From Hormiphora californensis (Eukaryota > Animalia > Ctenophora): a stretch of DNA of 64,000 bases. This document shows positions 10,606 through 58,100 of the stretch, in pieces. How positions within the stretch are numbered: position 1 is the stretch's first letter; each line of letters begins with the position of its first letter. Both the position numbers and the translations under genes were made by a program. The DNA lies in NCBI GenBank assembly GCA_020137815.1, contig CM035362.1, forward strand, positions 2,294,001 to 2,358,000. Reading direction: 5' to 3'. The notes beneath the pieces were generated by a model. The model saw only the letters and a program-made list of their open reading frames with translations. It ran no database searches and was not told where the DNA came from.

Positions 10606-13422
<2,817 letters not shown>

Positions 13423-18128: not shown

Positions 18129-18393
18129 GGTTTAATCTAAATGTGAAAAGTTAAGTCAGGGGAGGGGTGGCTAAAAATGATTATTGGAGCTGCTGTACTA
18201 GGGGAGCTGCAGTACTAGGGGGCTAGCTGTCACAAAAGAGAGGCTAGCCAGTCATGTAACAACAAGGAAATAACAGATAGAGACAGACCATTCTCTCTTT
18301 ATACTGTTTGTAGCTGCTTCACTTTGTTTTTCTTGCAATAATACCACTTTGCCAAATTGGTCAAACTCATATCCTCTTTAGTTGCAATAGATA
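18129..18393. promoter_or_regulatory. Probable bidirectional promoter region
   Basis: Only 265 bp separate the divergent start codons of the coiled-coil gene and the tetraspanin. Confidence 0.4.
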
Positions 18394-19161
18394 ATGGGCG
18401 TCCACGTTGGTCACATTGGAAGTCAGATTAGTGAACGACGACTTGAAAAACGTTGGAGATGGGGCTTCACATTTTCATCAATCTTTTCTACAATCGCAGG
18501 ATGTGTCCTAATTGGTACTTCCCTGACACTCTACTCAGATGGCCGGTACCAGGAATACTTTGATGATGCCCAACACCCAATCATAGCTCTCCTCTTCCTG
18601 GTATCATGGTGTGGGGCGTTAGCTGGGTTTCTGGGGGTTTGTATCATAACCGTCAAGAGCTACAGTGTGTTCTACTCCATGAACATTTTACTGGGCCTGG
18701 TAACGATGGCGAAACTAGCAGCAGTGTGCTTCACCCTCGTTTACAGGATGAAAAGCATGCACGCAGTTGAGGATCAGTTGGAAGTGAGGGTAACCAACTA
18801 TTCCACCCACATCCAGGCTCAATGGGATTTGGATCAGTTGCAGATGAGTGACGAGTGTTGTGGGGTAAAGTCACCACTAGATTGGGCCAATGGGACCCTT
18901 GCTAAAGGTTGGACGACAACAGATCTTCCAGATTCTTGTTGCACAGTGGTCGTGGAGGGGTGCGGGAAAGGAAAGGCTAGTGCGGCAGTTTTGGAAGGAC
19001 TAGATAGAGCAATTCACGAGATAGGGTGCTATGACAGGTTGGCAGTCTGGATTGATGACCGAATGTGGCTTATAGCGATTGTTGCAGCTGTTACATCGGT
19101 TGGTGAAGGAGTCATGGTGTTCATATCACAGAAATGGATTCAGTTTATTGAGTTAGATTAA
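18394..19161 (+). CDS. Tetraspanin (intronless, 255 aa)
   Basis: Four hydrophobic helices; the large extracellular loop has CCG, P.SCC and GC before TM4. Confidence 0.9.
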   Translation: MGVHVGHIGSQISERRLEKRWRWGFTFSSIFSTIAGCVLIGTSLTLYSDGRYQEYFDDAQHPIIALLFLVSWCGALAGFLGVCIITVKSYSVFYSMNILLGLVTMAKLAAVCFTLVYRMKSMHAVEDQLEVRVTNYSTHIQAQWDLDQLQMSDECCGVKSPLDWANGTLAKGWTTTDLPDSCCTVVVEGCGKGKASAAVLEGLDRAIHEIGCYDRLAVWIDDRMWLIAIVAAVTSVGEGVMVFISQKWIQFIELD

Positions 19162-24057: not shown

Positions 24058-27000
24058 ATGGTTGTTTTGACGAGTAACTTGGTTGCTGCTGCTCCCTCAG
24101 GAGCTGCCAGAAAGAAGCATCCTGGAAAAGCAGTCCTTGCAGGTACAGTGTTGTTATCTTCTAACCCTCCTTTACATTTGCGGTTGTTATGTTCTAACCC
24201 TCCTTAACAATATATTAACATTTACTGAGAGCCGGGAGAGAAGGCCGAACAAGGCAACTTGTTATTATCATTTCGAGAGGATTTTCTAGGATTCGCCACC
24301 AAGTATTTTGTGGACCCTTCAAAAACTACCATTGTTCAGGTGGTTTTGCTGGAGGTCTCGAGATTCTCTGTACCTTTCCTACTGAGTATGTGAAGACCCA
24401 GCTACAGCTTGATTCTCGTGCTGCTACACCCCGTTACACTGGTACGTGTGTTTTTTAAAACTACTCTTGTTTTTTAATACCTAAAATAATTAAACAATCA
24501 TTCAATAATTATAAGATCCTGAAGTAATCCATACCTGCAGGTACGTTACAGTTCTTTCCAACTCCTTCTTTTTCACATTCTCTCGCTTCCTAAACACCCG
24601 TCTGCTCATGTATGCATGTTAGACGATCTTACATTTTTCCTTCTCTCTCATTCTTCTACTCTCAAATCTCCGGTGCGGGCAATTTATCTCACTAGAAAAT
24701 GCATTGTTTACCTATTCTAAATGTTGTCCCGATAAAAAAAGAACTGATCCTGTGAGAACGGTTTTGTTAACACCTACCTCTCCACAGGTATCGGTGATTG
24801 TATTACCAAGACTTTTAAAACTCATGGAATGGGTGGGTTCTACCGTGGCCTCTCATCTCTCCTCTACGGATCCATCCCTAAAGCTTCTGTCAGGTGAGAT
24901 GCAACACCCAAACTGGGATATAACTTTTTATGTTCTAACCCTCCTTTACATTTGTAAAAAAGGGGGTCGAGCTAGTCAAGATATTATATACGCGGGTCTA
25001 AAAGTTGGGCTTGTAATGGGGTTCGAGTGGGATTTGGATCATCCCACTAGTCACTACGTTGTGATTGTGATATGGGGAATTTAACTCTGGTATGCAGGAT
25101 TTCAGTCCCACTGCTTAAATCATGTTATGGTAACTAAACAAGCAATACTGTTTGGTCTGCGTTTATGATCTTCTATCACGTAATGCATCTTGAGTCACGT
25201 GACCTAAACCGTGTATCTCCCACGTACAAATGCAAACTTCATTGACGGAGGGCGCGGGGTAACGAATGTAGCGAGTGTGGCGCGTTGGTGGGACGCGCGC
25301 GCAATGAGGTGGTCATCTTCTGGCGTGGGAATCTTCTGATTCTGTGGGCGGGGTGTTTGAAACGGCTTCTTCTGTTTCCTGTGATAAGTGTTATCAGACG
25401 CGGGTGAAGGAACCTAAATATGCAACATTTTGTAATATATTTCATGCAAGACACAAACATGCATGTGCAATATGTGCACAATTCAACATGATGGGGGCAT
25501 CAGCCATCACAAGCATTGCATTCTTTCTGAACATGCGTGCGAGAACACAAGTCATGTTGAACTGGAAGAGAAAGAAAATGACAGGAAGGTTTGAATAAAA
25601 GAGTCTTTCGTTATTCAATGAGATTTGGGGACTGTCAGGCCAATTGTCTGACCACAGTTCTCGCGCGAAACGAGAATGGGTCAGTGCTCTGACAGTTTGA
25701 GGACGAATAAAGTATGCCAGAAAACTGAAAAAGTTCTTGGTTTCACCAGCATGAGTCAGTTAACCCAATCTTCTTTTCTCCAGGTTCATGGGATACGAGG
25801 CACTAAGGAACAAGATGGTGGATAAGGATGGAAAACTAACTCAAACCAAAACTGTCCTCTGTGGTCTAGGTAAAACAGTCATTCCAGTGTGCTTTCAAAC
25901 CAGTATCTTCTCTCAATTCTAAATTGGTCACCAAATTGGTCACCACAACAGTAATTATGACATCAATTGAACAATTATAATCACGACATATCAATTACGT
26001 TTGTCAACAACCCCAATTATTAAACCCCCGCCTCCCCCCAGCAATCTAATAACCCCTCTCTCTATCAGGTGCTGGTGTATCCGAAGCGATCCTTGTTGTA
26101 TGTCCTATGGAGACAATCAAGGTGAAATTTATCCACGACCAAAACCAGGCTAATCCTAAATACAGGGGATTCGTTCATGGTGTTCGAGAAATCGTTAAAC
26201 AAGAAGGTATGTTTTTGGAGGGGGCTTCTTCATGCAGATCTTATCCATATCGGGGCGGTTCTGATCTAGTTTGCATGCGAGATATCGGTCAGATAATCTC
26301 GATCGGCCAATCACTATGGATCTCAAAGGGTTAATGTCTATCTGATATCATCCCATTTCTTGAATTGTTCATTCACGGACACAGTGTCAAGCTACTGAAC
26401 CCATTTCCAGGTATTCGTGGTACCTACCAGGGGCTCACTGCCACCATTCTAAAACAGGGATCTAACCAGGCAATCAGGTTCTTTACCTTTAACAACCTCA
26501 AGGAATATTTCCAGGTAAGTAGGGCTGTTGGAATTTGTTCATACTAGAGCGTTTCAGAAATAACTTCGTGTCGCGATATTTCGGGTTTGGTAAGAGATAG
26601 AGACTTCTACCTAGTTTTATCCCGTTCATTGGACAATTCTCTTCCTAGAAACATGTTCTGAATTATATATGACAACCTCAAGTACTCGAAATTTGGTTCA
26701 TTGACACCGTAAGTCGTGCTGCCGCTGCACGGGGCTACCAACTTTTTCTAAACGCCACTGGAAGAAATCGGGTAAAGATTTTTGACTTCCTGTAGTGCTC
26801 AATCGATAGCAAATCGTCTAAGGATGAGATATATATGTGATTTGGGTCTCGACGCGTTGACTAAAAACATTTAGAACAGTAGATGTAACATGAAAAAACG
26901 AAAAATTGCAAAATTTGACCTCAATTTTTGGCTTGTTTTAGGGGTGTGTTCGAAAACGTCAATTTTTGACTTCAATAAGCCGACGAAGCGAATAATTGAC

Positions 27001-28089
27001 TTCATATTGGCTTAGAGCTTACTTAGAACTATCTTTTGCTGCCAAGATATCGGTTATACGCCAGTCCTATAAAACGTGAAGAGACCCGGAAGTGAAAATT
27101 TCAAAATTTTGCCAAAGCTTTTCAAAGGTCCATTGCTCAGCAACGAATGAAGCTAGGACCTTCTATTACATCTTGAACGAAAGAGAATTGTCTAATGAAC
27201 AAGTATAATGCAATAAAATATCCCTTAGAACCCATTTTTGAGAAGTACAGCAGTTTCAGTACTATTCGCGTTTTTCCCGTGCAGCGGCAATTTGGGTAAC
27301 TTATATTTCCGGGTTCGCCGAGAGCCAACCCTGATCGAATTTGTCAAAATGACCATTGTTGTGTGTAGTCAAGAGGTCAAATAACATGCTAGAAAAGGTT
27401 TCGTGTAGATATCTTTTAGACTTTTGGAGATATCGGGACACGAAGTTATTTCTGAAACGCTCTAATATTTTTCTGTCGCCAGCTCTTTGGAGTATGGATT
27501 TAGGAGATGTTGGGACTTGTAAGGAGTCAGTGCTACGATTTGGTGTCAGTACAATATGATCCATCCAACCATCACCCACCCCTAGGACGGTGACAATACA
27601 AAAGATATTGGTGTTGCCAAGACATTCCTGTGTGGTGGTGTTGCTGGAGCTGCCTCTGTGTTTGGTAACACCCCTCTAGATGTGGTGAAAACTAGGATGC
27701 AGGGTCTGGATAGACATCTTTACAAGAACACTTTCCATTGTGCCCAGATGGTCCTCAAACACGATGGACCTAAAGGGTGAGTGATAGTTATGATAGTTTC
27801 AAATCTTAATTATAGTTTGATAATTCCTTTTATCATGATTATAATTTCCATATTTCTGAATCCTCTCAAACCTTAACCTCCCCCCTTCCCCTAGCTTCTA
27901 CAAGAATTAATATCGTTTCGTTTTATTTAGCATTATTTCTGACACGTCTTACCCCCCCCCCCCCCCCCCCCCAGTTTCTACAAGGGAACAGTGCCCCGGC
28001 TGGGACGTGTTGTGTTTGATGTTGCCTTCGTCTTCACCATCTACGAGCAGACAATGAAGGTCCTCGATTATGTCTGGAAGACCGACTAA
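24058..28089 (+). CDS. SLC25A1: Mitochondrial citrate (tricarboxylate) carrier, 8 exons
   Basis: [82 protein letters not shown] and [12 protein letters not shown]; three carrier signatures; TAA at 28087-28089. Confidence 0.96.
26547..27462. mobile_element. Non-autonomous TIR element (~916 bp), TA-flanked, in an SLC25A1 intron
   Basis: ta|GAGCGTTTCAGAAATAACTTCGTGTCGCGATAT ... ATATCGGGACACGAAGTTATTTCTGAAACGCTC|ta. Confidence 0.8.
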
Positions 28090-28276
28090 GAAGAGACGAA
28101 TCACAACATGAGAGGGGAAGGGAGATTGGATAAATGGTCTTACTTTTTTAGGGCAATGACCTTGAGAGTATGAACACTTTTTGAAATGCGATTGGTACGA
28201 GATATTATAAACATTGTATTACGAGTGTGTTGTAGTTCCCTTTGTTGTCTGGTTCGTGTGCCGTGTGTCTGTCCTC

Positions 28277-28380
28277 CTGTCAGGCCAATGCTCTGACCAC
28301 AGTTCTCGCGCGCTCCGCGTGCAGAACAGAGAGAGAGCGAGAATGGGAAGCGAGAATGGGTCAGGCCAATGCTCTGACAG
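28277..28380. repeat. Short dispersed repeat family (copies about 25632-25694, 46199-46237, 59325-59363)
   Basis: Shared tgtcaggccaatgctctgaccacagttctcgcgcg and CTGTCAG...CTGACAG termini. Confidence 0.65.
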
Positions 28381-28967
28381 CTGTCCTCTTGGTTGATCCA
28401 AGAGATATCTTAGTAATTTATGTTTTTTAGTTAGGGGTAGAGGCCTTCTTTTTAGTTCACGTTTGTTTTGACGTCTTAAACATTGATTTTCTTTTTTCGG
28501 ATTGGATTTGAATCTGGTAATTTAAATCCGGCCAATTACAAATGACGTGAGTTTGAAACAGGGTGGTTGAATGTGTGTTTGTGGACAAGTTGATATTGTT
28601 TAGTATAACTATTGAAAAAATGTGAAAAAGGGTGTTTTATTTTTTGAGCAAGTCCAAAACTGAAAGTTACGAACGAAACGTAACGCGCGATCAGTTCGAC
28701 AATAATTTGCAGTGGTGTACGCGCACGCGCGGCAAAGATTTATACTTGAAAATTTCAGAATTTAAAATTTCCCTCCAAAAAATTTACAAACTTTTCTTGA
28801 GACAAAAAAATTGCGTGACACGTTCGAACGCGTGACAGGGACACTTTCACAACTGATATTCACCATTAGTAACACTGAAAAGGACTCGAAAGACGGTGAT
28901 GAGTCCATTTCTTCCTTTGATCTGCGAGACAACTTTGGTTCGGTGGCGGTGCCCCCAGCCACAGTGA

Positions 28968-31900
28968 ATGGAGAACGTAGTGTGCGCAGAACCAAGTACC
29001 ATGCCTGTTTGTTACGATTTTCTGGAAACCCAAGAGGTAACGATTTGTACTTGTTTCCCAGCCTAGGGGTCTAGATCTAACTTAGGCACTAGGTTCTAGA
29101 AATCACATAGAAACGCTGAAACGGGAAAGGTACACCACTTTTCCGAGCACAACTTGCAGAAGGATCGATGATTTATCGATAACTTTAAATAAAAGAGTAC
29201 AGTTTGATAATTGTATCGTGTTCATTGGTTTGATATATCTCGCACCTCTGTGCCATACAATCACTTATCCCGTTTTAGTAGTATCGATCGATAACAATTT
29301 TAAAACTATCTTTACCAACAATTTCTCTCTCCCCGTCCCAGGTTCAATACGTTCGAGATTTCAATAAAGTAGGTGGGAGAGCAGACATCGTTGCCTTAAC
29401 TATTGGCAAGGTTCGTACTTCAAACTTTTCAACACTACTTTAAACAAATTAATTTGAGGTAGATATGGTGATGTGACAGCCCCTATGGGCAGACCGTACG
29501 ATATGACAGTTATTCCAGTACGTCAAGAGGAGCTGACTCAGGCTGATTTGGATTGGTATGCGAGCCGGATCCTGACCATGGTCAAGTATGCAGGGATTCC
29601 TTCACCGGATTTAACCAGAAAGTTAGGGAGTAGCCCTGAGGATATCAGGGAAATACCGACATCTTTCAATATCCACTCATCCCACACGAAACGTGATTTG
29701 GCATCTGTATTAGAAGATGTATTTATGTCGACCTTGCCACTTCTGAAGTACTTCCAACATCGTTTCAACGTCGAGAAGTCGCCTGAGTTGGAATTAAAGG
29801 AAGAAAGAGATGAACTGTTGAGAAAGAGTTTGGAGTTGCAGAAAAAAGAGGAGATATTGAGAGTTGAGAGGGACGACCTGTTGAGAAAGACTATTAGGTT
29901 ACAAGAGCAGGTCATTGAGCTTCAGGACACTCAACTACATCGAGTAACCGAAACAGTACAGAAAGATCTGCGCTCTTTCTCAACTGTCTTGACGCAGAAT
30001 TGTAGGTCTGCTCTTGCACCGAAAAATATCAAGAAAGATGAAGGGAAAGCTCATGGCAAAAAAGTTGATTCGAGTCCAGATCCAGACAGATCCAAAAATC
30101 TGATGGTGTTTGGTCTACCGGAAGTTGAGGCGGAATCTGAATCTGTGTTGAAATGTGAGATAGAGAATGTTTTGGCTGAGCTTGATGAGAAACCTATTGT
30201 TGTAGCTAAAAGGGTGGGTTTGAAACGGGAAGGAAGGGAGAGACCCGTGATCGTGAAGCTACAGAGTAGAGAAATGCTGCTGAGCCTTCTCCAGAAGGCT
30301 AGGCAGTTGAAACAGTCCGAATCGTACTGCGGTGTATACTTGTCAAGAGATATGTCACTCGCAGAGAGAACGGAGAGGAGGGAACTCCACCTTACATTGA
30401 AGGAGTTAAGGGAATCGAATCCCGAAAGACAATTTCGGATACGGAAAGGAGCGATAAACTTTTCATAGACTATCTTTATAAACTGGACTCTTAAATGGAC
30501 TCATATCTTTGATCAACCGTTTTTTGCCCACAAAAAGGGGCTGATAATTTTATACATCAAACTGTGTAAATTATTATATAGATTTAATAAATAAATAATA
30601 ATCGTACTACAGCTTTATTCCATTTTCCATGATGGGCTTACACAATTTAACAAACAGTAAAACTAACTGGCGGTATGCTTTAAAGGGGATTACAGAAACT
30701 TTTTTTTCAGGATGCAGCGATCGGTAAACCTTTAAATGACACTGAGAGGCGATTCTACGAGACGGCAGCCCAGAACCTGCCACGACCTCTTCACGAGTTT
30801 ATCCCCCAATACCGTGGAGTTGTCTTTATACACGATGGAAAGATCAGGAGGACAGACAAGGAGGGGGCTCAAAAAGAAAAGAAAAAAGACGCCTGTTATC
30901 TTGTTCTAGAGGATATAACTTTCAAGTTTTCCCGGCCGAGTATCCTTGATTTGAAAATGGGAACAAGACAGTACAGTGATACGATGAACAGTGATAAAAT
31001 AGCAAGGAAGAAACAGAGGACTCTTGAAACTACCAGTCATACAATGGGACTCCGTTTAGCTGCTGTCAAGGTACTAAATATATACCAGGTACTAAATATA
31101 TATACCAGGTACTAAATATATACCATTCATAGCATATTCAACCACGGCCATTATAAGGCCTGATTATCGCCGATAATCTAGGATTATCGGTGCTGGTATC
31201 ACTAAGTGATTGGCCCTCGTGCGTAGGGTCCCCGAAATGAATATTTGTACACGGCCTGTTTCAATTTTTCGGTCCTATTTTTATCTGCCAGGGCCTATTT
31301 CAATTTGTCAGGGCATATTTTAATCTTTCAGGGCCTATTTCAATTTTTCAGGGCCTATTTTAATCTGTCAGGGCCTATTTCAATTTTTCAGGGCCTACTT
31401 CGATTTCTCTTTTTTAGTAGATCTCGTAGCCAGCAATCTGTAATATTTCTCAATCCAATGAAGCTGGAATATTTTAAAACGAAATGTTTGTTTTCTGAGG
31501 AAAGCATATTTTCTTCTCTAATCTCCCCTCTCTCTCTCATCTCTTCTACAGTCTTCTCTCTCCCTATCTCCCTCTGAAGTTGCCAAACATAATTACAACC
31601 TGACGGTGTGTCTCCTGCGATAAGCGTTTCTCCTGCATTTTTGCAGTGTATATATACGCATCCTGTAAGAGACGAATGTTTTAACTCGTGCGTTGCAGTA
31701 CTGGCTACTGCATATATTGGGTTGAAAATATACTTTGGCCCACAACAATTTTTAGAACAGTAACTTGAATTAACAGCTAGGTTCCCAGGCAATTATATTT
31801 ACAAAAAACATGTGATTTTGGGAAGGTCCCACGGTCCTCCCTCTCATTCTAATCTCATATCCTGTCAGAATCTCTCTCCCCTGGGCCTTTCAAAATAACA

Positions 31901-32173
31901 TGTCATAGTGTTAAAAATCCTGGAAGAAGTAGAACTTGCATTGGCCATGCATATATCATATCGTGTCCGTCGTAATAATATTCTGTTTAGAGAATATTAT
32001 AGTCCACAACTACTTATGAGTATTGAGAACAGTGAATTTGGGAATGAGGCCGACACGTTTTTCATTTCACCCCTCATTTCAGAGTTATAACTGCAACGAA
32101 AGTAATGGATTTTATAAACTCCACAAACTGGAGGGAAGAGCTCTGAACCAGAGAGGGATCTATGACGCTTTCA
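28968..32173 (+). CDS. Inositol polyphosphate kinase (IP6K/IPMK family), 5' part; remainder not recoverable
   Basis: Exons at 28968-29036, 29342-29410, 30711-31070 and about 32083-32173. Motifs include KVGGR, ERRFYE, FIPQYRG, YLVLEDIT, PSILDLKMG (PxxxDxKxG) and TTSHTMGLR. Exon 4 has apparent frameshifts where sequence quality falls. Confidence 0.85.
29420..30601 (+). mobile_element. Retro-insertion: spliced-leader relic + LINE-ORF1-like ORF + (TAAA/TAA)n tail, TSD TCGTACT
   Basis: TCGTACT at 29413-29419 and 30602-30608. The 5' end reads TCAAACTTTTCAACACTACTTTAAACAAATTAATTTGAG and the tail is AATAAATAAATAATAA. The body is intronless. Confidence 0.8.
29485..30468 (+). CDS. LINE ORF1p-like protein (coiled coil + RRM/CTD-like), intact, no ORF2
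   Basis: The ORF is uninterrupted (first ATG about 29485). A coiled coil is followed by RSKNLMVFGLPE, RVG...RPVIVKL and GVYLSRDMSLAER...R, which are motifs typical of ORF1p from CR1/L2/Jockey-group LINEs. Confidence 0.75.
   Translation: MGRPYDMTVIPVRQEELTQADLDWYASRILTMVKYAGIPSPDLTRKLGSSPEDIREIPTSFNIHSSHTKRDLASVLEDVFMSTLPLLKYFQHRFNVEKSPELELKEERDELLRKSLELQKKEEILRVERDDLLRKTIRLQEQVIELQDTQLHRVTETVQKDLRSFSTVLTQNCRSALAPKNIKKDEGKAHGKKVDSSPDPDRSKNLMVFGLPEVEAESESVLKCEIENVLAELDEKPIVVAKRVGLKREGRERPVIVKLQSREMLLSLLQKARQLKQSESYCGVYLSRDMSLAERTERRELHLTLKELRESNPERQFRIRKGAINFS
31269..31397. repeat. 20-bp minisatellite
   Basis: Unit tcagggcctatttcaatttt, about 6 copies. Confidence 0.8.
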
Positions 32174-32999
32174 GGTATAATATCCTTGTTCCATAATCCA
32201 TTTCTTTGTTTTGTGACTCTGATCACCAAGTCAATAGGCTTTCTAGTTTCTATTTATAAATTGCGAACACTTTGAGACACACCTATAGATAGCCGAGGGG
32301 TGCAAAATACGATATATTAAGAGATTAATTTGTAGCATAAAGAATTCTTTCACTGAGACTTTAGGGCGTGTCTCGAAGTTTTCGCACCTTTGATTTGCGT
32401 CAATGAGACGTCAATGACATTATATGCAAGCACCATCTTTATTATTTTACTCGAATTTCATAAATCTCCATCAAAGTGTTACTTTTAAAGGAACTTTAAG
32501 ATTAACTTTAACCTAGATCAAATACACCATGGTCCCATGTGTGTATTATGCAATGATATCATGTAATTTGTAATATTCTATGGTCTAGGGTAGCTCAATA
32601 TGTTCCCGGGATGAACCTGCCTAGTGACTTGGCCGTCCATGCGGTAGTAAATTGATAGTAGGTAGCGATCCATGTTCGAAGGATTTTTCTAGAATTTCAT
32701 ATATGGGATTGTAAAAAATGCAATTAAATGCAATTAAACATTTATGCCCTGCAGCAGGGTCCCGCTCTGCTACTTCATTATCCGACAATTTCTGGAAAAT
32801 GATACACAAAATGAAATTTGTAGAAACGACCAGAGCTGAAAAAAAAAATCACCGATCTTTAAATACAATCCTAATAATAAAGTCAGTGTTTCTAAACAAG
32901 AACCCCATACCAGCAACATTTCACCTCTTGCAGGCAGTTTTTATTTCCCTTTCCACCCTCCCATACGGGGAAAGGATATTTCAAAACCTCCCTTCCCCC

Positions 33000-35620
33000 C
33001 CTTTTGCAGGCATATTTTCGATGGAAATAAATTAAAAAATTAAAAAACCGGGTTTTGGGGATTTGGGCCCTTTCCCCTAAACCCCAAAATCAAAACTTTT
33101 AGAGGTGAGAATTTTTTGGTTTTTTCACGGTTTTTAATTGTGGCGAAAAGTTTTTCCTTTGTGAGGGGGGTTTTGCCCAAAAAAAAGGGGGGGTTTCTAT
33201 GATTTTTGTTTGTTTTTTTTCATTTCTGTTTTTTTAAAAAATTTTGAAACGGTTCATTTTTTATTGGGGTTTAGCCTTTTCACGAAATAAGGGAAAATGT
33301 CCTCAAAAGTTGACTTTTTTTGGGTTAAAAATTTGTTAATGAAAAGCTCCATTTTTGTAGAGAGAGGGAAAAAATCTTTTTTATTTTCCCGGGTTGTGTT
33401 ATCTGTTTTTTAAATTTTTCCCCCTTTATCTAAAACAAACTTCCCTTTTTTCTAAAATTAACCTTTTTTTTTCCGGCCCCTCTCCTTCTATCCCTCTCAT
33501 CTCCCCAATCCCCCTCATTTTTCTAACAGATCCCTCCCTCATTGACAAAAAAGGTTTCCACCTCAGCCCTTTTCCTGCTGCCCCCCTTTTTTCTGGTTTT
33601 AACGGTGGGAACCTCAAAACCCCCCTCCCAAGGTAATAAAGGAGAGATTTTTGTGTAGCTCACGTTTTTCCCTTTTTCGTTTTATGACCCTGTGAGGGGG
33701 AATTGCCGTAGATATAAAAGATATCCCCTGCCGGAAGATTTTATATTTCTTTGCACTGTGGGGGGCCCAAGTCTGAAAAGACTCTTCTAGCTCAGGACTC
33801 TCACACTAAGAAGAGCTCTGCAGATAAAACCTCAGCTGTTTAAAACAATCTTTAAAGATATATTCACTGTAGTAAACTAGCTCCGGGGACACACACTTTT
33901 ATACGCTTTTTCTCATCCTCCCCTTTAGAGCACATTTGCTCCCCCCCTTGCACTGAAAAAGGGGGGGGGACAAAAGAAAAAAATTCACCCGAAACCCAAA
34001 CCCCCCCTCCCCTTTCCTCTTCTCTCTCGCGAATACCTTTCATCCGTTTTTTCCCGGTTTAGTCGACAATTTTTTTCCGAGCTCTTTTTCGGAAATCTTT
34101 TTTAAAATCTCAAAAAGGAAAAGAAAACTAAATATTAAGTAGTCTAATCTATTTTTTTCCCCCGGGGGGGCCCCCCTTTTTTTTTCCTTTCCTTCTTCTC
34201 TTTCTTTCTCTTTTATCCCCCTCCCCCTTCTCCCCCCTTTTTCCTCTCTCTTTCCTCTATCTTTTTCCCTCTGTTTTTTTCCCCTTTCTCCCCCCCCTTC
34301 CCTCCCCTTTTCCTCTAAATATTTTTAAGAATTCCCCCAATTTGGGCCAACCCCAAAAGGCCCGGTTTTCCCCGGGAAACCCCTTTTTTGGCTAAATTTT
34401 CCCCAAAAACCCCCGGGGGGCCCTGCAAAAATTTTGGGGGAACCCCCCGGGTTTGGGAAAAAACCCCCAAAGGCCCGGGAAATGAAACCCCAATATTTCT
34501 TCCCTTTTTCCCCTCGGAGCACCCCCCAATTTGTAAAAAATTACATCGTTTAGAGAGTGTGTTTAATTTTTAAAACACTTTTAGGGGAACTCTGTAAAAT
34601 TCAAATTAGCATTTTTACCCCGAATAATACCATTTTGGGCCCGGTATAATTTTTTTTAACCCCCCTTTTAATGAAAATTTGGGGGCAACCCCCAAAAAAA
34701 ACAAAAACCACAAATTGGTTTCCATTGAAAAAAGATTTTTTGGAACCAGGCCAAAAGGGTTTTTTGAAGCCGAAAAAAGAAAAATTTAAAACAAAAGGAA
34801 GAACATAATAAATTTAAATTTTACCAACAACCTTATTTTGGTTTTGGGAATTTTAAAAAAGGGAAACGGTGCACAGGGCCGGGGGCCGATTTTTTCCCCT
34901 TGGTTTAAAGGGATTATCATTTTTGAAATTTGAAAACTATTTAAAAGGAAAATTTTTCAATTTTAAATACCCCGACCATTTGGAAAAAAATTTTCTTAAA
35001 CGTTTTTATAATTTTTCCGAAATATTTGTTTCCTTTTTTTCCCAAAAAGGGGGGGGAAACGGGAAGAGTAGGAGGGGCCCCGGGAGCCCAATTTTCTTTT
35101 TTAAAAGGTTTGGGGGGCCCCTTAAATTGTTGAAAGGGGATTTTTGGGGGAGATAAAAAGAAATTTAAAACCCCCCATAAAGTTAAAGAGGGAAAAAAAT
35201 TTTAAATGAAAAAGGGGGGGAGAAACCCGATCCCCCTTTTTTTGGTTTTTTACAATTTTTTTTAAAAAAAAGGGATTTTGCCAGATTTCCCCTTTTCCCC
35301 TCCCTTCCCCCCCCCCAAAAATTTTGAAAAAACAACCCCCTACCCCTCCACCCTTCCCCAAACCACTCCCTTTACCTAGCCTTTTCTCCCCCCTTTTCCC
35401 CAATTGCCGAGTTGCGCTTTTCGCCGGCCTTTTTTTTAAAAAAGGGGGTGAAAATAAAAAAGGGGGCCCAATTTTAAATTGGGGGGTTTTCAAAAAAATT
35501 TTTTTTTTCCCCCCTGTAAATTTTAAAAACCCTGGAGGGTTTGTTAGGGAAATTAGGAAAGGGGGGGCTGAAAAAGGGCGGAAGGGGAAAGCCCAGGGTT
35601 TTTTGGGTTTTTTTTTTTTT

Positions 35621-35665
<45 letters not shown>

Positions 35666-35678
35666 TTTTTTTTTTTGG

Positions 35679-35726
<48 letters not shown>

Positions 35727-35737
35727 CCCCTTTTTTT

Positions 35738-35789
<52 letters not shown>

Positions 35790-38700
35790 AAACCATGGGG
35801 GGGGAGGGAGGGGGGGTTTTAAACAAAAAAAAAATTCTCGCAAGGGAATTTGTTGGCAAAAATCAAAATGGACAATGCAGTTTTGTTTCAAAAATTTTTA
35901 AAACAAAATAAGGCCAAGAGGGTGAAGAAAAAACAACAAATTTTCACTCCCCATTTTTCTTCCTGGCAAAAGGTGTTTCGGGCGCCCCGGGCCCCCGAAC
36001 CCCAAATGAAAAGAACATAACAAATTTTTCCCAAGGCCAAATAAATTCTTTCCCTTTAAAACCAAAAACCGGATCATGGTTTAAGGGAAAAACAAAAAAA
36101 AAGCCCCAAAAAGGGTTTTAAACCCTTTATCCCTTTTTTTTCTTTTCCCCAATTATTTTGGTATTTCACTTCACTTCCCCTCTTCTCTCCCCTTTTCTTT
36201 CTCCCCTCTCTTTTTCCCCTTCTCTCTCTCTTTTTCCTCTATAAACCTATCTTTCTTTCTCCTAATTCGCCTCTCGCTCCTAAACATACTTTTCTTTTCT
36301 CCCCCAAATGCCCCCCCTTGGGAAAGCCCCCCATTCTGTTTTTAAACCCTATACAAAACCCCCTCCCTTTTGTAGGTATTTTTAAACCCTTTTTTTTTTT
36401 CAAAAAAGGAAAGCTTCCAACATCTTCCCCGAAATGTTTAAAAGAAGATGAGGTTTAAAGAAGTTTGCACTTTTGTTAGACTTTAATTTATGTTCGGGTT
36501 CAACAAGTTAGTAAAATAAATGAAAAAATAAAGTTTCCACGGGCCCGTGTCAAATGTCCAAAAAAACTTTCAAACTTTCCTTCCCTGCCCGGGGCCAGGG
36601 AGGAGGGGGGGGGTGAGGGAGAAAAAGTGGGGGGGTTGGGGGGTTTAAGGGGGGTTTATGAGGTTCGGCGAGATTAGGGAGTTAGAAAGTTGAGAACATA
36701 AAATCGCTCCCCGGCCCAAAATTTCCCAAAGGAAAACCGAAAAAAAAACCCCGCAACATCAACCCCCAAACCCCTAACGGGCAACCCCCCCCACCTAACT
36801 ACTTCCCGCACCAAAACCCTAACGGCCCCTTTTCCCCTTGTTCGACCCTTCCTAAAATTTGTTTTGTTCAAACCTTTTGGGGAGGGAGGGTCGAACAAGG
36901 TAACCTAAAATAAGATAAAATAAAAACGGTTTGAACAAAACAACCAGCACTCACACCTAACGGGGTGAGGGGGTAAGGAGGGGATAAGAGAATGTGTGGG
37001 TTAGGAGGGAGTGAGAGATTAGGTGGGGGTTATGAATTATAAAAGGTAGGGGGGCCCCTGGGGTAGGTCGGAGACCAAATATGGGCATATCACGTGATGG
37101 AGAGAGGGAGAAAATTTGTTTGTATTTTGCGTGGGTCTTGTTATGTGGTGTAGTGTTTGAAACATAAAACCCCCTACACCCCGAAACAAAACATGCACAC
37201 GGGGGAAAGGATGTGGTGTGTGAGACACGGTTTGAAAATGTGTTTTACTGTGGAAAATTTACGGTGCTGAATGTTCAATGGGTTTCGGGGGGTATCTACA
37301 AAATTAATAATAGATCTAGTAGGGTGGGGGGGGGGTGTCTGGGTTGGGTCTGGGGGTTTTAGCTAAAATGACTAATAGTCTAGTGGGGGTTTTAGGGGGT
37401 CTATTTGGGCCCGGGGGTTTTATCTAGCTAGATTACTAAAAAATCTGTGGGGTTGAGGGGTTTTTTTTGGGGGTTTGGGGGGGTATTAGTTTAATCTACA
37501 AACTGGGATCTATTTGGGTTTCTGGGGGAAACCTAGTGGGCTCTGAGGGGTTTATCAAAAGGGGTTTCAAAGGGGGTTTTTTACCCGGGTCTGAGGGGAA
37601 ATTTGTTGAGGTTTTTGAGGGGTATCTTGCAGGGTCGGAAGGATATCTAGTTGAAATACCCGGGTTATTGTTGGGATCAATTGGGCCCCAAAGGGATGAC
37701 ACCCCCCCCCCCACGGGTTTGGGGGTAAAAATCTTTTTTTTATGGTTCGGGGAAAACCCATTGGGGAAATTTAGTGAAAGGAATTTGCTTTTCCCATATA
37801 AATTTCAAAACTTAAAGCACATTTCCAAAATTTTTCCCCCTCCCTCCTAACCTTCAAAAAAAATCCCCATCGCCCCCCAAAACCCCCCGGTCCCGGAGGG
37901 GTTGTGAGAAAAAGCTGCCCGTTTTTTCCATCTCAAGCCCGTGGAAAAATTTTTTGTTCATTATTGGGGGGGGGGGCACGTAAACCGTAACGTGCACAAA
38001 AAAATTTTTCACATTAAAAAAATGTTATTTAAAGTTTTTACAAATGTTATAAAGTGTTATAAAGTGTTACAAATTGTTACAAAGTGTTGTTTTGTTCAAA
38101 CCGGGGAGGGAGGGTCGAACAAGGCAAACAAAGTGTTGCAAATTGTTACAAAAAGTAAAATTGTTCGAAAGGGACCCCTTTTTAAACCTTTTTTAAAACC
38201 GTGGAAAACAGGGTAACACTATGGAACACTATGTAAAACCCCTTTTTAACACTATTTAACAATTTTTAACACTATGAACACTTTTTAAAATTTCAACACT
38301 TTCTAAAAACTTTCTAATGTTTGTGCAAAAAAAAGTTTTCTGGCCCCAGGTTTCGTGTGACCCCCTCCCTTTTTTTTACTAAAATTTTTGAAATGAACGT
38401 CCAGTCAATAAAACCCCATCTTCTTGAACCCGGATTTAGAGCAAGGGTTTTTGGGAACCAATTTTCCTTATTTAACAAAACACTACCCGAGAGAGATAGA
38501 GAGGAAAAGGGGAAAAGAGAGAGAGAGATAGAAGAGGAGAGAAGAGAGAGGCGAGAAAGGGGTGGTTTTGTTGGGTGGGAGAGAGAGAAAGGGAAAGTTT
38601 TCGCTTTCAGCGATTTTTATTTTTGTTTTTTGCAAGGGGGGGGGAAAGGGGGGAATCTTGTTTTTACGGGAAAGGGAAATCTTGTTTTATTTGTTTTTTA

Positions 38701-40700
38701 TACCAAACAAAAGTTTCCCAAAAAAAATTAGTTTTTGCATGGATTATGGATAAGGGGGTTTTTATTTTAATTTTCGGGGTTTTTGAAGGTTCACACCCCC
38801 CTTTTTGTGGGGGGAAAAGTTTTTTTTTGCGTTCCCCTTTAAAATGTTAAATTTCCGGGGTTTTGTTTGCGTCCCAAAATTTATAAATTTCACCTGGCCC
38901 GGGCTTTGGGGGGGGGGGATTGACAACTTAAAAAATCCCCTTTTGGGGGTTTTAACAACACTTAACGACAACATATGCCCGCCCCCAAAGGGAATAGAAT
39001 TTCAATTTGAGAGGAAAAGAGAGAGAACCTCTGTTTTAAGGGGGAGGGAAATCGTGTGGTTTTTAAAATCCGATAGTATTGTCAAAATGGTATTTGGGGC
39101 CCGGGCCTCCTCTTTTTCGCTTTTTAAAGGGTTCCCAACCCCCCCCGATGTCTCCTCACTAAAGTAGATAGTCCAAAAAATGGGTAAACCCCGTTTTTAA
39201 AAAACTCTTTTTCATCCCCAAAAAAAAAGCCCGGCTGCTTGGTTTTGATAAACTGAGGGGGATCCCCCCAAAAAAATTAACAAAATTTTTTGACTTGACG
39301 TAGGTTGTTGGTGCCATCCCTTAAAATCCTCCAGTCCAAAATTTTTCCCCAATAAGGGATCCCACATCTTTTCGACATGAAATGCTATTATTAGGTGATT
39401 AAATTTATTAGGATATAAATAATCAGGATATAACATAATAAACCGTGGGGTGCGGGGACTGGGGAGGGAGGGTCGAACGGTAAGTGGTAAATACTTGTTT
39501 TGTTTGTGGCGCGAAGAAAGATAGATTTGTTTGTCTTGTTTGTGGCGCCACTTAACGATTTCATAGCTTGTTTTGTTCGCGGGAGAGATCAGAGAACAAT
39601 ATCGAAAACGCCGAACAGCCAAAATTTGTTTGTTCAAACACGGGGGATAAACCCAAAAAAGCGTTTCGCTCTTGAAATTTCATTGGAATCGGGGTGATTT
39701 GCAAACCCCTTTTAAAATCCGTTTTTAAGCGACTTTACCCCTAATTCTTGGAATTTGGCCCCATTGGTTTTGTATTTTCAAAAGGGGGAAAACCGGGAAA
39801 TTTCCCCGGAATCTAAAGGGAAAATCGTTTGAAACCCCACTTAAAACTCGGGGAAAGAAAAGGAAAAAAGCGAAACTTAAAAAAAGCGAAACCCAAAAAA
39901 GCGAAAAAAAAAACGCTAAAATAAAAAAGCAAAAAAAAAAACGGCAAAAAAACAAAAAAAGCGAAACAAAAAAAACCCAAAAAAAAAACCCGAAAAAAAA
40001 AAGCGAAAAAAAAAAGCAAAGATGAAAAAACCCCACGGTTCTTTTTTTTTTAAAGGGGGCCGCCCGCCATTTTTTTGGCTTTTGGCTCTGGGGGCGGCGT
40101 CGTTTGCCGTTCCAAAATCAGTAAAACACAAAAAACCTTTTTTTTTTTTTAAAAAAAAATAAAAAGGGGGGAACAAAACAAACTTCCACGGGAATATATC
40201 ACAAAATAAAAGGGGCCCTGCAATCCATCATTTTAATATTCCCAATTTCCCCTTTTACCCCCCTACAAAAATTTTTAAGCTGGGTAGACCTAGATCTACT
40301 CAGAACCACTTGGGAACATTACCACGATCATTTTAACATTGCTTGAATTGGAGTTTTTGAATCATCTTCACCCAATACTTACGAAAAAACACCGAGGAGA
40401 ATTGAAAAACGGGGCTTAAAAAGAAATTTTTGTTTTTTTGCCTCTTTGCAGTTCTCGTGGATCCCCACCAAAAAACACCTTGCTGTGTTTCGGGGCTCTA
40501 GCTCTTACAGTTTTAGTTTAAGGGTGATCTAAACCCAATTTTATTTAAATCGATTTTACCGGACCCCCCCGATTTTACGGGGGCGGGGGACCCCCTATTT
40601 ACCCGGGGGTCCATGCTTGTTTTTTTTCCCCTTGGGGGGCAAGGGGAAAATTGGGGGTTTGGGCAGCAATTTTGGCCTTTGTCCCAAAACACGTACCAGG
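33000..40700. other. Low-quality, homopolymer-inflated sequence (probable unpolished consensus)
   Basis: Composition shifts abruptly to long A/T/G/C runs, with a poly-T-rich tract of about 190 nt at 35600-35790. It contains garbled copies of repeats that are clean elsewhere, e.g. ggaccccccccgattttacggg at about 40560. Confidence 0.75.
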
Positions 40701-43199: not shown

Positions 43200-43308
43200 C
43201 AGGAATCGACCGAATCGGGAAATACTGGTCCCTGATTGGCTGATAACCAGTCACGTGACCTAAATAACGAGCTCTGATTGGTTGTTTACTTGTTTCGGTC
43301 GGTTCCTG
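43200..43308. mobile_element. 109-bp hAT-type MITE (other copies 1791-1883, 2302-2404, 57939-58047)
   Basis: TIR CAGGAA(T/C)CGACCGAA...TTCGGTCGGTTCCTG. The 8-bp TSD is CGATGTAG here, AAACGTAG at 57939 and CTGGGAG(G/A) at 2302. Confidence 0.88.
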
Positions 43309-43642
43309 CGATGTAGAAACTTTAACCTTGGCAAGTAGAATCTAGGATCTAAAGGTACTGAAGGAGAGGTTTCCATGGAAGGGTCGCCGCCCGTACGTAG
43401 CATGTATGTGATAAGATACCCCACCACCACCCAGTGTCAAGTTGTACATAATGTGAGTTTTCCTGGTTTGTTTAAACAACCCCGTACCGGGAGATTCTGA
43501 ACAATTCTCTTTGATAAACAAGGAAAATCACAGGGGAAAAGAGATGCATTTATTCGTCGCTTTTATGAAATTATACTAATGGACTAATGGTGTTTACTGC
43601 TAATGAAGGTTAATGAAGACGGTGGTGACAGATCACTGACAC

Positions 43643-49140: not shown

Positions 49141-52100
49141 TCATGTTGTATATTTCTGTTTGCGTAAAAAAGATTTTCCGAGTTTATGTTTTTTGTCCGT
49201 TAACTGAACCGAACTTGGTCTACTGACCCCACTGTCTGTCACTACCGCCCCCGAGAGTTCTTCTCTTAGACTCGAGCTGGATTTATACTTTTGGTTTGCA
49301 CGGAGAAGGAGTTTAGATTTTGAGGTTGTGCTGGGGGTGGAGGAGACGTAGGCTGCTCGACGCATTGCTTCAGTAACCAGGAACCCCGCCTCTCTGTCAT
49401 TTCTTACCTGAGAATAGTTGGAACCCGGGTCAAATTTAGAGTTCTGAACATAATGACCACATGTGTTATATATTAATAGGGATCTCTAAAAAAGTTCGAT
49501 AGTAGACAGTTGGGTGATCGGATAACTGTTTATTAGCCTCATGTTTGATATCAGAGTTTTGTTTATTCTCTCTGTGGCTGGACAATGAATCAGAAGGGTA
49601 TAATGACGCTACCAGTTTCGCGGATCTACCTCTTCATCGGCTACAAAAATAAATAGTGTGAATTATAAATATATATAAAAATTAAAATCACACACGTAAT
49701 CAAAAAATTATAAATCAGCACTAAATCATAAACTAACCACTGTAAGCAGGGAGCAAGTCTCATATGAACAGTACAGAGTTGAACTGAAGTACCGTTACAC
49801 TACAGCAGGTGAGGATTGAGTGATAAACCACTCATCCTCCCCCCGTTGATCTCAACCTACGATGCCCATCCACCACAGAACGCCTGGAATATTTTTTTTT
49901 TTTTGGGGGGGCTGCGGGGGGTTTGTGTTTTTGCTAACCCTACTATATTATTCAAAAACTATTTACAACCTCATTAACCAAAACCACATTACATATTTAA
50001 ACCAATCAATAAACACGTTTCACATAACAACTAACCAGTAACAAACCCTCAACAACAATTACTTAGTATAAAACAGGTACCTCCATAGATCGGCACTCTT
50101 GGAAGAGGACCACTAACCCACACCCCACCCCACACCAAGACACTGGGCAGAGGGCAGGCCCCCTGCACCACCCTCCCTTCGAGCTCATCGGATAGCGCTG
50201 CGTGCCATCTACCGCCCCACCACACATTCAGATTCCCCCATCCTCAGCATCCCCCCAGGACAACCAGTCATCCTTCCCCTTCATCTCCACCCCAGCCACC
50301 ATTTTACCAAACTTCACGTTCCAGCCCTAGTCCCAGCCCAGCTCATCTGAACCGACAGAAAACAGATGTGCCCACTGCAAGAGAACAATCAGGTCAACAC
50401 TACACCCAATTGAATGCACACATTCCACCCCCTTTCCATAATGTTGCACGAACAACCCAGCTCATTCCAGGAAGCAGTCCTAAGGGACAACCAACTGGGA
50501 ACGTGACCCTGCACAATCCGTCTCCGAGCCCAGAACGCTCCAACACCCACAATCATCACCCGAGACATCCATTAGTTGACGACCAGCACCACATCCCTTA
50601 GAATTATGCAGTGGAACTCTGGTGGACTAGCCCGGACAGCAGGCGAACTGAGGAAGAGACTGAATCCAGTTAATCGACATCTTCCATGATCCAAGACCAA
50701 ACTCAGAACAAGACATAACTCCCCACTTTCCGGTTTACTCGCCCCTCCCCAAGACAGTGCGAGGAATCGGAGGGGGGCTCCTTACGCTCATCCGCACGAA
50801 TCTCTTTTGAAGACCCGGTGGGCATCAGGACGGGACGGGAGGGTCATACAGGTGCAAGGATTAAGTTTGTGAGGAATCGCTGGGCGACCACTCGCAAATG
50901 TATACTGCCCCCCCAACAACTGTTAGGTTAGGCAGTAACCACACTCCTGAGAACCGACATCCTACCCACCGGACGAATACTCCATAATTGCAGGCGCCCT
51001 AAACCCCCTCCACCTCTGGGACTCGATCCCAGCCAGAGGACCAACGGGGTGGAGTCATTGAAGACCTAGCGTAGAGAGGATTGACACTAGCTTTAACGAG
51101 AGGAGACCAACAGGTGAACCCTGCACCGGCACTGAGACTCCCCGACCGTAACACTCGTGGGGAAGAATGGCTGATAGAGCAGACTGGCATCCCGACCAAG
51201 ACCTTGGATCTGATCACCTTCCCATCATATTCAACATCAAATCCAAACTCGCCTACAACACAATACAGTCGACCTCCCAAGTGGATAGCAAATGTTGACC
51301 TTTCCGCTTCACAGCCGAGCTAGAGAACGACTTCCTGGACTTGAGGAGGACCAACCATCCATAGAAGGGTGAGAAGATTACAGTAAAAGTGATCAAAAGC
51401 GGCAAACATATGTAGGGAAACAGTACCAGGAAAGAGGCGTAAGGGTACGATGAACCCCAGAGTAAGAGATCCGTGCAAAAAGGAACACCTTAGAGAGAAC
51501 GTGAAGACCACAGAGAAGAATGGATTGAGGCATGCCACAACGCCGCCAACCTGATGGACGAAGCAAAACTGGACCGGTGGGAGGAACTCTTGCTGAGCAG
51601 AGATGCATGATCCCCAGCTATTGGTAGGCTCGTGCCTCCCTCAATTGATGCCCGGACACCACCAACCCAACGAAGCCCTGTCTCCACAACGGCCGACCAT
51701 CACAACAATAGAGAGAAGGCCGATATTTGCTTCCCATTACGCCCGTGTTAGTTCCCTGAACATAACAGACCAGAACGTACAAGACCACCCTGAAGCTCAA
51801 CGGATCCTCGAGGAAAACCAACTGGAGAAGACGAAGTAAAGCTCCAGCTAGCTCCCCCTTTACACTGAAGAGCTAGCAGACTATAAAGAAAAGCAAGAAA
51901 AGGGCGCACCGGGCCCAGAGATACTACCACCTGCTTTCATCAAAGCCCTGGGAGCAACGCCCTGGAAGAACTCCTTTGCCATCTTTAACCAGTCCCTGCC
52001 TCCAACAATCTGCCCCATTTTGGAGGACTGCCTCGATCATCCCCCTGTTAGGCCTGGCAAGCCAGCCAAGTCCTACGTCATACAGGCCAATCAGCCTCAC

Positions 52101-55100: not shown

Positions 55101-58100
55101 TTGAGGATGTTTTTAGGGCCATCACCAGGGTATCTGGGAAAATTGTCTAACTGTTTTACTCCTATTAAGGAATGTGTATGCCCAATAATATGCGTAATCG
55201 TCAAAACTGTTGTAAAAACTATAAAATAATTGTTGAGGATTGTTGAGGATTATTGAGGATTTTTGAGGATTTTTGAGGGCCCTCATTAATTCGAAAAACG
55301 CTGGACAAGACCTCATCCTCATTAATTATTGGCCGGCACCCCCCCAGATTTCACCACACAATAAACATGTTATCTGGTACACTGGTGACATGGTGTTACA
55401 CGAGCCCTTCTCGAGTCTTTCACAAATATTACAATTTTTCGCAAGACACTCTAGATTGTCGTGAGGTCGTGAGCTACATAGCATGTCTCTCAAGCGGGTG
55501 CCTGGGGTGAAGACTAAATCGATTGGCAGAGCTCTGGCGGTGATAAACTTACGTATTTCACCACTCACAGTTTCAGAAACATACGGTAATTTCAACATCA
55601 CATTGTTATTACCCTTTGTCAACCTACCCCGGGTTCTCTGTTCTCCAAATTGTCTGGGGTGTTCATACCCATTAGCTAAAAGAAGTCTGTCAGTAATGGC
55701 TAAGGACTGTTCCAATAATTCCGGGTTAGATGATGAGATCTCAGCAGTTCTGTAGAAGTTGCGTACTGTCTGCACTTTCGTTTCCAGAGGATGGTGAGAC
55801 CGGAAGTGCAGGGTGATGTCCTTTCTCGTACCTTTTCGATAGAACTTAGATTCCAGCTTATCATCAGTAATTCGAATCTCAGTGCCAAGGAATGGTGTAA
55901 AATCTCCGTCCTCAGGAAAATCCACCTCCCATTTTAATAATTCTCTCGGATCTTGTCGGGCAATGTTATTGAAAAGAGAGATGGCGGTTTCCCTGTTATC
56001 TGCGAGCGTCCAGGCATCATCAATGTACCGGCCGTACAATGATAAAGAGATGAATTTCACGTCGGTATATATGGTTGCCCTCTCAAATTTGTAAACTCGA
56101 ATAACTGCAGCAATAGGACTTGGTCGACAGCCCATAAACAAACCAACCAACTGTTTGTATACTCTACCACAGTAAGTGAAGTAGGAGTTAGTTAGCACCA
56201 ATTCCAGGATCTGGTGTACGTCACAGAGGTGCAACTCACGGAGATTCAGGAGCTCTCTATTCTCAGCAGCAAAGTCAATGACATCCTTCACACAATCCTC
56301 GATCACAAGATTGGTGTATAGAGCTGAAATGTCTGCTGAGCAGAAGTGCTTACCCTTCAGCTGTTCTGGTGGGAGTTCAGCTAACTGTTTGAGGTGCGTG
56401 TGTATGTTGCTCAGATGACTGGGGATCAGATTCAGGAGGGGACTCAGGATCTGGGTTACCAGAGCAGCCAATTTCTCCGAGGGGGATCCGACACATGACA
56501 CAATTGGCCGCACCTTCCCTTGCTCTAAGATGTCTGTTGGAGAGCATAGGGAGTCAGCATTGAACTTATGGGTCTTTACGAGAACATACATACATGGCAG
56601 ACGAGTGTTGGTCGTCTTTAGTGCCTTGTACATTTGATCCCCAAAACCTCTCGACACACAGATATCTCCCCACAGGTGCTGATTTATAATTTTTGATTGA
56701 CGTGTGTGATTTTAGTTTTTACTATATATTTATAATTAACACTATTTATTTTTGTAGCCCGATGAAGAGGTAGATCCTCGAAACTGGTAGCGTCATTATA
56801 CCCGTCTGATTCATTTGTCCAGCCACAGAGAGAATAACAAAAACTCTGAATACTAAAAAAGTTCAGTACATATTTACACCGCCGCTCTGGGTGTAACGAC
56901 TGTGTAAAGACTGTGTAAACGCTGTGTAAATACTGAACTTTTTTAGGCATCCCTATGGACAAACCAACAAAAAGTCAGACATAACAATGTCAGATAAACC
57001 AATTGGACACGTACCTGTTGTCTCTCCTCCGTTAACATGTCCATCCATTTCCGTTTCTCAGCGGGGTGTTTACAGAACAAGACTATCCATTTCTGTTTCA
57101 CAGGATTCTCCATTCTCCAACCATTACACACACCCGCCTCTGAAATGGGGGTGATAATCATGTCAGATATTATTCATGAGCTGGCCCCATTCCCTAAAGT
57201 CCTTAGCACGAATTTACTGAATACTGATAACCCTACAAAATACCCGAAAGCTATCCCAAAAGTATACCACCAACCTGAGTTATCTGGTAGATCAACTATT
57301 CGACACTGATCAATGTTAATCCGACCCTTGTACTGTAACCGTCCACTTCCCAGTAACTTCCTACAGTACACTAGCTGGTGGTCGAATAGGAAGAACCTCC
57401 TGGTCTGTTTGTTACCTGGATGGGAGAGAAGGTTCGGTTAAATGAGTCATCTGTAAGTTAGTACCTCATGACCTGTCTGGCGCCGCGACCCATCTGAGCG
57501 CACTGTCGCGCGCCCAATTTGAGAATCAAATGGGGTATAATGGCGCCGCCATACAGCTCATGACAGACTGTCTGGCGGTGCCGACCCGATCTGAGCGCAC
57601 TTTCGTGGATCAAAACAGGGTCTATCGTCGCCAGACAGGTAACACATGTAGTTATAACAAGAGCTCATAGCATAGCTTCAAGGATGAAAGTGGCAAAGTC
57701 GGGTGGTATAGATCTACCTGCACTAATTTTAGTAAGACTCCCACTGTGGATTAGTATAGAGGAATCCTTCAGCAGATCATCTCCCCTCCAATCTTCCACT
57801 GTGGCCTGCCACTGAGCCAGTTTGTTGATCCCCTCTGCCCTTCTTTTCCTCTCATTTACTGTTGTGGCCACCCCCTTCATTATTGACTCAGCTTCCAGTA
57901 CCTGTGGAGGTTAAAATAGTTGTATATTCCAAACGTAGCAGGAACCGACCGAAACAAGTAAACAACCAATCAGAACTCGTTATTTAGGTCACGTGACTGG
58001 TTATCATCCAATCAGGGACCAGTATTTCCTGATTCGGTCGGTTCCTGAAACGTAGGCACGGTGTGCTCTGCCGAACCCTCAGAGCGTAAAATAAAATGAA

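Follow-up and report, generated by a model that had tools for sequence, protein, structure and literature searches.

The kinase intron and the insertion within it

The window analysed here, a 64-kb stretch of the Hormiphora californensis genome, carries on its plus strand a gene for an inositol polyphosphate kinase (PF03770, E 1.2e-16), whose exon numbering was deduced from splice motifs and the open frame. One intron of this gene (29411-30710) is 1300 bp long when filled by the element described below and 111 bp long when empty, and the element is oriented the same way as the gene. The inserted block occupies 29420-30601 (1182 nt) and lies between two plus-strand copies of TCGTACT, at 29413-29419 and 30602-30608, which are the longest repeat flanking it; an abutting 7-mer occurred by chance in 6 of 5000 random boundary pairs. 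The base T29419 can be assigned either to this duplication or to the leader sequence that heads the block. The 5' copy covers intron positions +3 to +9, the insert is placed after +9 and the donor is intact. The intron left after removal of the block measures 111 bp rather than the about 120 bp first noted. Targeting of splice donors by the element was considered and found to be without support, as one site only is available and its donor is unchanged. Elsewhere in the gene, inspection by eye showed that the start of the next intron is tandemly repeated three times (31070-31125), creating extra donor-like sites, and that a short GA-rich stretch lies between 18-bp direct repeats upstream of the gene (28280-28380).

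Four public runs were compared with positions 28800-31100, two of which do not cover the flanks. In the other two, the DNA runs X4 and X5, which come from different samples, contigs join 29412 directly to 30602 and skip 1189 bases: the element itself and one of the two duplication copies are missing, and a single copy is left in the empty allele. Since the duplication is accompanied by empty-site contigs in two samples, the insertion is genuine and polymorphic; the originally noted 7-bp duplication around a block of about 1.18 kb is thereby confirmed by both repeat search and empty site, and the suggested search for an allele without the insert was successful in X4 and X5. The contigs with the empty joint have depths of 56.9 (X4) and 421.5 (X5), and because these match the level of the other flank contigs in each run, both sampled DNAs look mostly empty at the insertion site. 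Duplication, tail and empty site, the marks of retro-insertion, are all present on the window copy. A duplication was seen for this copy only: no second copy with its own was found, and the related locus L001 has none, although its metagenome contig may join the flanks of different copies. Runs X9-X20, with small word shares, were left out as evidence, with the exception of X13.

The remainder of the window contains several unrelated features. From about 33000 to 40000 the sequence is rich in homopolymers (runs of at least five make up 175-455 bases per kb, against 6-63 per kb in 26001-33000), and the noisy stretch from about 33000 is likely to reflect poor assembly quality. On the minus strand, 55329-56711 is an open frame of 461 codons with a reverse transcriptase domain (RVT_1 E 2.5e-5), the motifs of which we take to be Penelope-like, and the sequence at 56676-56849 is also present at 49551-49721. 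An inverted repeat of 612 bp, with arms 97.7% identical and 83 bp apart, spans 11786-13092, and four dispersed copies of a roughly 100-bp repeat share 91-96% identity (1790-1891, 2302-2406, 43200-43316 and 57933-58047). An unbroken plus-strand tetraspanin frame of 256 codons (18391-19158; PF00335 E 6.7e-24) is possibly an intronless gene or a retrocopy.

Anatomy of the element

The block begins, on the plus strand, with a spliced-leader relic (29420-29458). According to the accessible parts of PMC8527503, the Hormiphora californensis leader is 44 nt long, is carried by 56% of Iso-Seq reads and has 718 occurrences in the genome; comparison by eye with the leader given there shows that the 39-mer of the window equals its positions 6-44. 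The 5' sequence had originally been taken for a ctenophore trans-spliced leader, and the leader it matches is one found on mRNA 5' ends. As the relic lies inside the duplications and is missing from the empty allele, the leader came with the element and not from the target site. It is followed by a 5' UTR of 26 nt (29459-29484), which can be aligned to that of L001 and lacks a CAG found right after the leader in X4 and X5 contigs.

An intact open reading frame of 327 aa (29485-30468) comes next. Pfam and PDB sequence searches with it gave nothing meaningful, and the ESM Atlas yielded only leads under 0.9, to ctenophore clusters without a name and to clusters of Baculo_FP_2nd. An AlphaFold2 model built on a 123-sequence alignment (mean pLDDT 84.3) has a helical N-terminal part, a long coiled-coil helix (100-176), an RRM (205-288) and a C-terminal domain of helix-hairpin type (292-326). 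Foldseek gave 11 matches at E <= 0.001, every one of them to human LINE-1 ORF1p (best 4.8e-7). In VIA-align, run against 48,161 chains, ORF1p chains took ranks 1-3 (Z 10.7, rmsd 2.6, 88 aligned; Z 10.1, rmsd 7.8, 122 aligned; Z 9.6, rmsd 14.1, 162 aligned), and the next, unrelated chain had Z 8.3. In addition, a family profile matched the first ORF of locus L010 (probability 98.6, E 1.1e-15), a distant relative on a long branch in the tree, in which the matched ORF precedes an 889-codon frame with a reverse transcriptase domain (RVT_1 E 3e-26) and, as judged by eye, what are presumably endonuclease-like motifs. The window ORF is thus predicted to encode an ORF1p-type protein, for which a chaperone role may be envisaged. 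The earlier description of an intact, LINE ORF1p-like frame agrees with these data, and the ORF is a multi-copy one rather than a single-copy host gene lacking ORF1p similarity.

Endonuclease and reverse transcriptase are absent between ORF1 and the tail, and only 133 nt separate the stop codon from the end of the tail in the window. The same layout without reverse transcriptase is found in L001, and an X4 contig runs unbroken over 30310-30591, so the proposed ORF1-only organisation held in both the window and L001. Downstream of the ORF, a subfamily-specific part of the 3' UTR (30469-30511) aligns poorly with L001 and varies among contigs. It is followed by a conserved 3' module with two predicted hairpins (30512-30585), common to X4, X8 and X13 contigs and L001, and by a short AAT/AAAT-repeat tail (30586-30601), present as originally described; other copies have (TAA)n tails. 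The X4, X8 and X13 contigs have the final 75-85 nt ahead of the tail in common but other sequence upstream, and in other copies AAT-repeat tails of varying length lead into other flanks. Five loose ends were seen upstream of the module, three like the sister UTR of L001 and two unlike it (by eye, 30 letters each). Run X6 yielded no contigs covering the 3' end, and X5 lacked them at 30417-30570, which may be an effect of filtering.

The folding z-score of the 3' module is -2.4 in the window and -1.9 in L001; covariation in the hairpins was absent from these two sequences, and Rfam found nothing real over 29300-30750. The module is likely to be the handle for the reverse transcriptase of a partner. 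The partner LINE was not found in ten related loci, in a search for fused proteins or in pattern searches of viral and prokaryotic collections, and ORF2 of L010 gave no match to the window or to the other nine loci. The absence of matches to the leader and 3'-motif patterns from the viral and prokaryotic collections is as expected for an animal element. One X4 contig is stop-free in one frame into the 3' module, ending at 30542-30547 (by eye), and its ten codons are too few to be read as the end of a partner ORF2. A second match to the 3' motif at 33171, with three mismatches, was rejected as lying in homopolymer-rich noisy sequence.

Copies, selection and the leader junction

The element belongs to a family. 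Word search returned 16 relatives and phmmer 878 clusters at 50% identity; EukProt supplied two close homologs of the ORF, one of which was traced to a gene model of Pleurobrachia bachei. A tree built on 34 selected rows places the window protein, L001 and both EukProt models in a 10-row clade with support 99/100. Among 10 related loci examined on metagenome contigs, L001 is the only one with this leader: ORF1 follows, then the 3' module known from the window and a tail of AAT repeats, ORF2 being absent, and its protein is 65% identical to that of the window. The idea of an element family is supported by this second leader-capped subfamily. The other nine loci are 31-38% identical and lack the leader, and no reverse transcriptase or endonuclease frame was seen in eight of them within the 28 to 3600 nt of downstream sequence. 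These eight, L002-L009, are distant ORF1 relatives without visible ORF2, several with TCAGT-rich or tandem 5' units. ORF1-only elements may accordingly be widespread in the lineage, with the leader head confined to one branch. The contigs of 28 full-length homologs have a median length of 1251 nt (23 of 28 at 1000-1450), which fits an element of 1.2 kb, but metagenome contigs are short anyway. A search for longer, fused proteins turned up none in 7992 candidates, a result of little weight.

In run X4, element contigs have depths of 308-442 (329 at the 5' end, 308 at the 3' end) against 48-57 for flank contigs, depth being a rough guide and not a copy number. Four X4 contigs, which cover most of the element, show a total of 4 differences from the window, and the left flank contig of that run differs at 10 of about 600 positions. 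Read roughly, the depths suggest that X4 contains several near-identical copies, most of them of full length. Several long-diverged subfamilies retain intact ORFs, and between the window and L001 the suggested dN/dS comparison gave 0.236 (bootstrap 0.16-0.34), with dS 1.02 and a codon-aligned identity of 71%. Purifying selection on the ORF is shown by this substitution pattern in one pair of sequences.

In the same single pair, 44 of 70 fourfold sites agree, whereas the leader shows no difference over 38 positions; the chance of such a leader match at the ORF's overall identity of 71% is about 3e-6. Identity of the leader despite synonymous divergence implies that it is either renewed from the host or under strong selection. 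In both copies the leader is short by 5-6 nt at its 5' end. Four forms of the junction were found right after the last AG of the leader. The window has no additional letters there; CAG is present in two X4 and two X5 contigs, TTTTAG in a single X8 contig and TTTCAG in L001. The X4 and X5 junction contigs include just the last 7-8 letters of the leader. Every extra piece terminates in AG, as would be expected from splicing that chose among neighbouring acceptors. The lack of CAG in the window may stem from a slip in a 2-nt microhomology or from an assembly error. Template switching onto leader RNA is unlikely, because all four junctions lie at the leader's last AG. No RNA contig joining leader to element was present among the matches listed, where the X7 element contig begins at 29479, and assembled contigs cannot reveal RNA ends.

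In a spliced-leader RNA gene the leader exon would run into a conserved GT intron, an arrangement not seen in the family: GT follows the leader in the window copy only, and in the sister forms the leader is followed by CAG, TTTTAG or TTTCAG and then by the element UTR. Beyond the family, X4 has 25 contigs that reach the leader through dissimilar upstream sequences (agreement 0.43) and 21 that continue past it into dissimilar downstream sequences (agreement 0.44), the majority not starting with GT; in X5 there are 11 entering and 15 leaving. Such contigs are not a count, since tandem leader genes would collapse to few of them. With unlike flanks on both sides and no GT majority, many genomic contexts of the leader are not leader genes, and many genomic copies may be heads of retro-insertions.

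Probable renewal of the leader, rival readings and known systems

The locus holds a multi-copy ORF1-only element whose insertion is polymorphic. On balance, this element is likely to spread as a non-autonomous retroelement, with a 5' end that is likely to be renewed by host trans-splicing. The cycle that we infer, with its transcription route, leader renewal, chaperone role and partner LINE, would begin with transcription of a copy by read-through from a host promoter, here within the kinase pre-mRNA. The final AG of the relic, which in the filled kinase allele is the first AG downstream of the donor, would serve as trans-splice acceptor, so that upstream host RNA and the old relic are removed and a fresh capped leader is joined. 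Cis-splicing of the kinase pre-mRNA to the relic AG would instead produce an early stop. Trans-splicing at this AG would rebuild the same 5' end, with occasional use of the next AG trimming a few bases. The capped element RNA could then be translated into ORF1p, which would coat that RNA; the endonuclease and reverse transcriptase of a partner LINE would bind the 3' module and copy the short RNA by target-primed reverse transcription, ending only a few bases short of the cap. We hold more tentatively, as a serious possibility, that this is a promoter-less family with a self-renewing leader head, in which the relic AG frees the element from the host transcript and supplies its new cap. If this were true, many of the 718 Hormiphora leader copies would be heads of retro-insertions and not leader genes, and insertion into an intron in the sense orientation would be the element's normal route of expression.

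The description of an ORF1-only, non-autonomous retroelement copied from a leader-capped RNA holds equally if the leader is renewed by trans-splicing, if it is added at a master locus or if it is an inherited head. With a master locus, each subfamily would have one or a few promoter-bearing sources with a bare acceptor, and leader-headed copies would mostly be dead ends. The perfect leader and the near-identical copies are explained equally well by such sources, as are the junction variants, since alternative (tandem) acceptors at one source locus would yield identical ones. However, long-diverged subfamilies with intact ORFs would require repeated new sources, and an upstream continuation of the element without the leader is absent among the loose ends listed; we consider a master locus rather unlikely. 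A leader captured once and now fixed, selected as an internal promoter or translation signal in the manner of a SINE's RNA-derived head, appears improbable. Strong selection could hold all 38 positions, the acceptor-like pieces TTTCAG and TTTTAG are retained behind the leader in sister subfamilies, and a promoter role has been proposed for dinoflagellate retrogene relics (PMC5585692, in its accessible parts). Nevertheless, the junction varies precisely at the last AG of the leader, both the window and L001 copies have lost 5-6 nt of its 5' end, and conservation extends to all leader positions rather than to a motif.

It is very improbable that the ORF represents a domesticated, ORF1p-derived host gene family, comparable with L1TD1, whose ordinary trans-spliced mRNAs left processed copies. 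A dN/dS of 0.24 would also be compatible with a host gene, and the many other leader-headed sequences in the same DNA runs suggest that ordinary mRNAs may be retro-copied. The tails, however, are AAT repeats and not poly(A), the 3' module is more conserved than the neighbouring UTR, and near-identical copies at high depth together with 878 related 50%-clusters are typical of a mobile family.

It is a basic problem how a non-LTR element regains its 5' end and promoter after each round, and known solutions include internal promoters, ribozymes and read-through from neighbours. Trans-splicing onto an inherited leader relic, if true, would be a further answer, and one in an animal. SLACS, CZAR, CRE and NeSL-1 also adjoin leader sequence, since they target leader genes, the leader being a target outside the element. 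The window element was rejected as a member of this group: its empty allele has no leader, and the leader leaves with the element. Trans-splicing onto leader relics also offers a testable explanation for the 718 leader copies of Hormiphora reported in the accessible text of PMC8527503, and may bear on the many nested intronic genes mentioned for this species. Genomic leader matches should not be equated with a count of leader genes.

No published leader-headed ORF1-only family was found in the literature searched, most subscription papers and Repbase lying outside the search, and none is described in the accessible parts of PMC2566580, PMC4233971, PMC6740152 and PMC4824033. As far as PMC5786205 was accessible, it lists Ag-Sponge (CR1 clade), HAL1 (L1 clade) and HeT-A (Jockey clade) as non-autonomous LINEs in which ORF1 is present. 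They resemble the window element in having a single ORF1p-type protein, no reverse transcriptase, a LINE-like 3' end and, as is likely for the window element, dependence on an autonomous partner; they retain 5' and 3' parts of a LINE after internal deletion, whereas the window element has a host leader as its 5' end and its parent LINE was not found. In Hydra, about 30% of Iso-Seq reads from transposons carry a leader (PMC12220107), which shows animal mobile elements using trans-splicing. The accessible portion of that report, however, concerns RNA only, with neither leaders in genomic insertions nor an ORF1-only family. Dinoflagellate retrogenes with DinoSL relics are similar in that a leader has been fixed in DNA through reverse transcription and that the relic AG can accept the next leader (PMC5585692, likewise in part). 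In contrast to those host genes with their tandem stacks of relics, the window family has one leader on a selfish, multi-copy animal element, and splicing at the last AG of the window relic would leave no leader stack.
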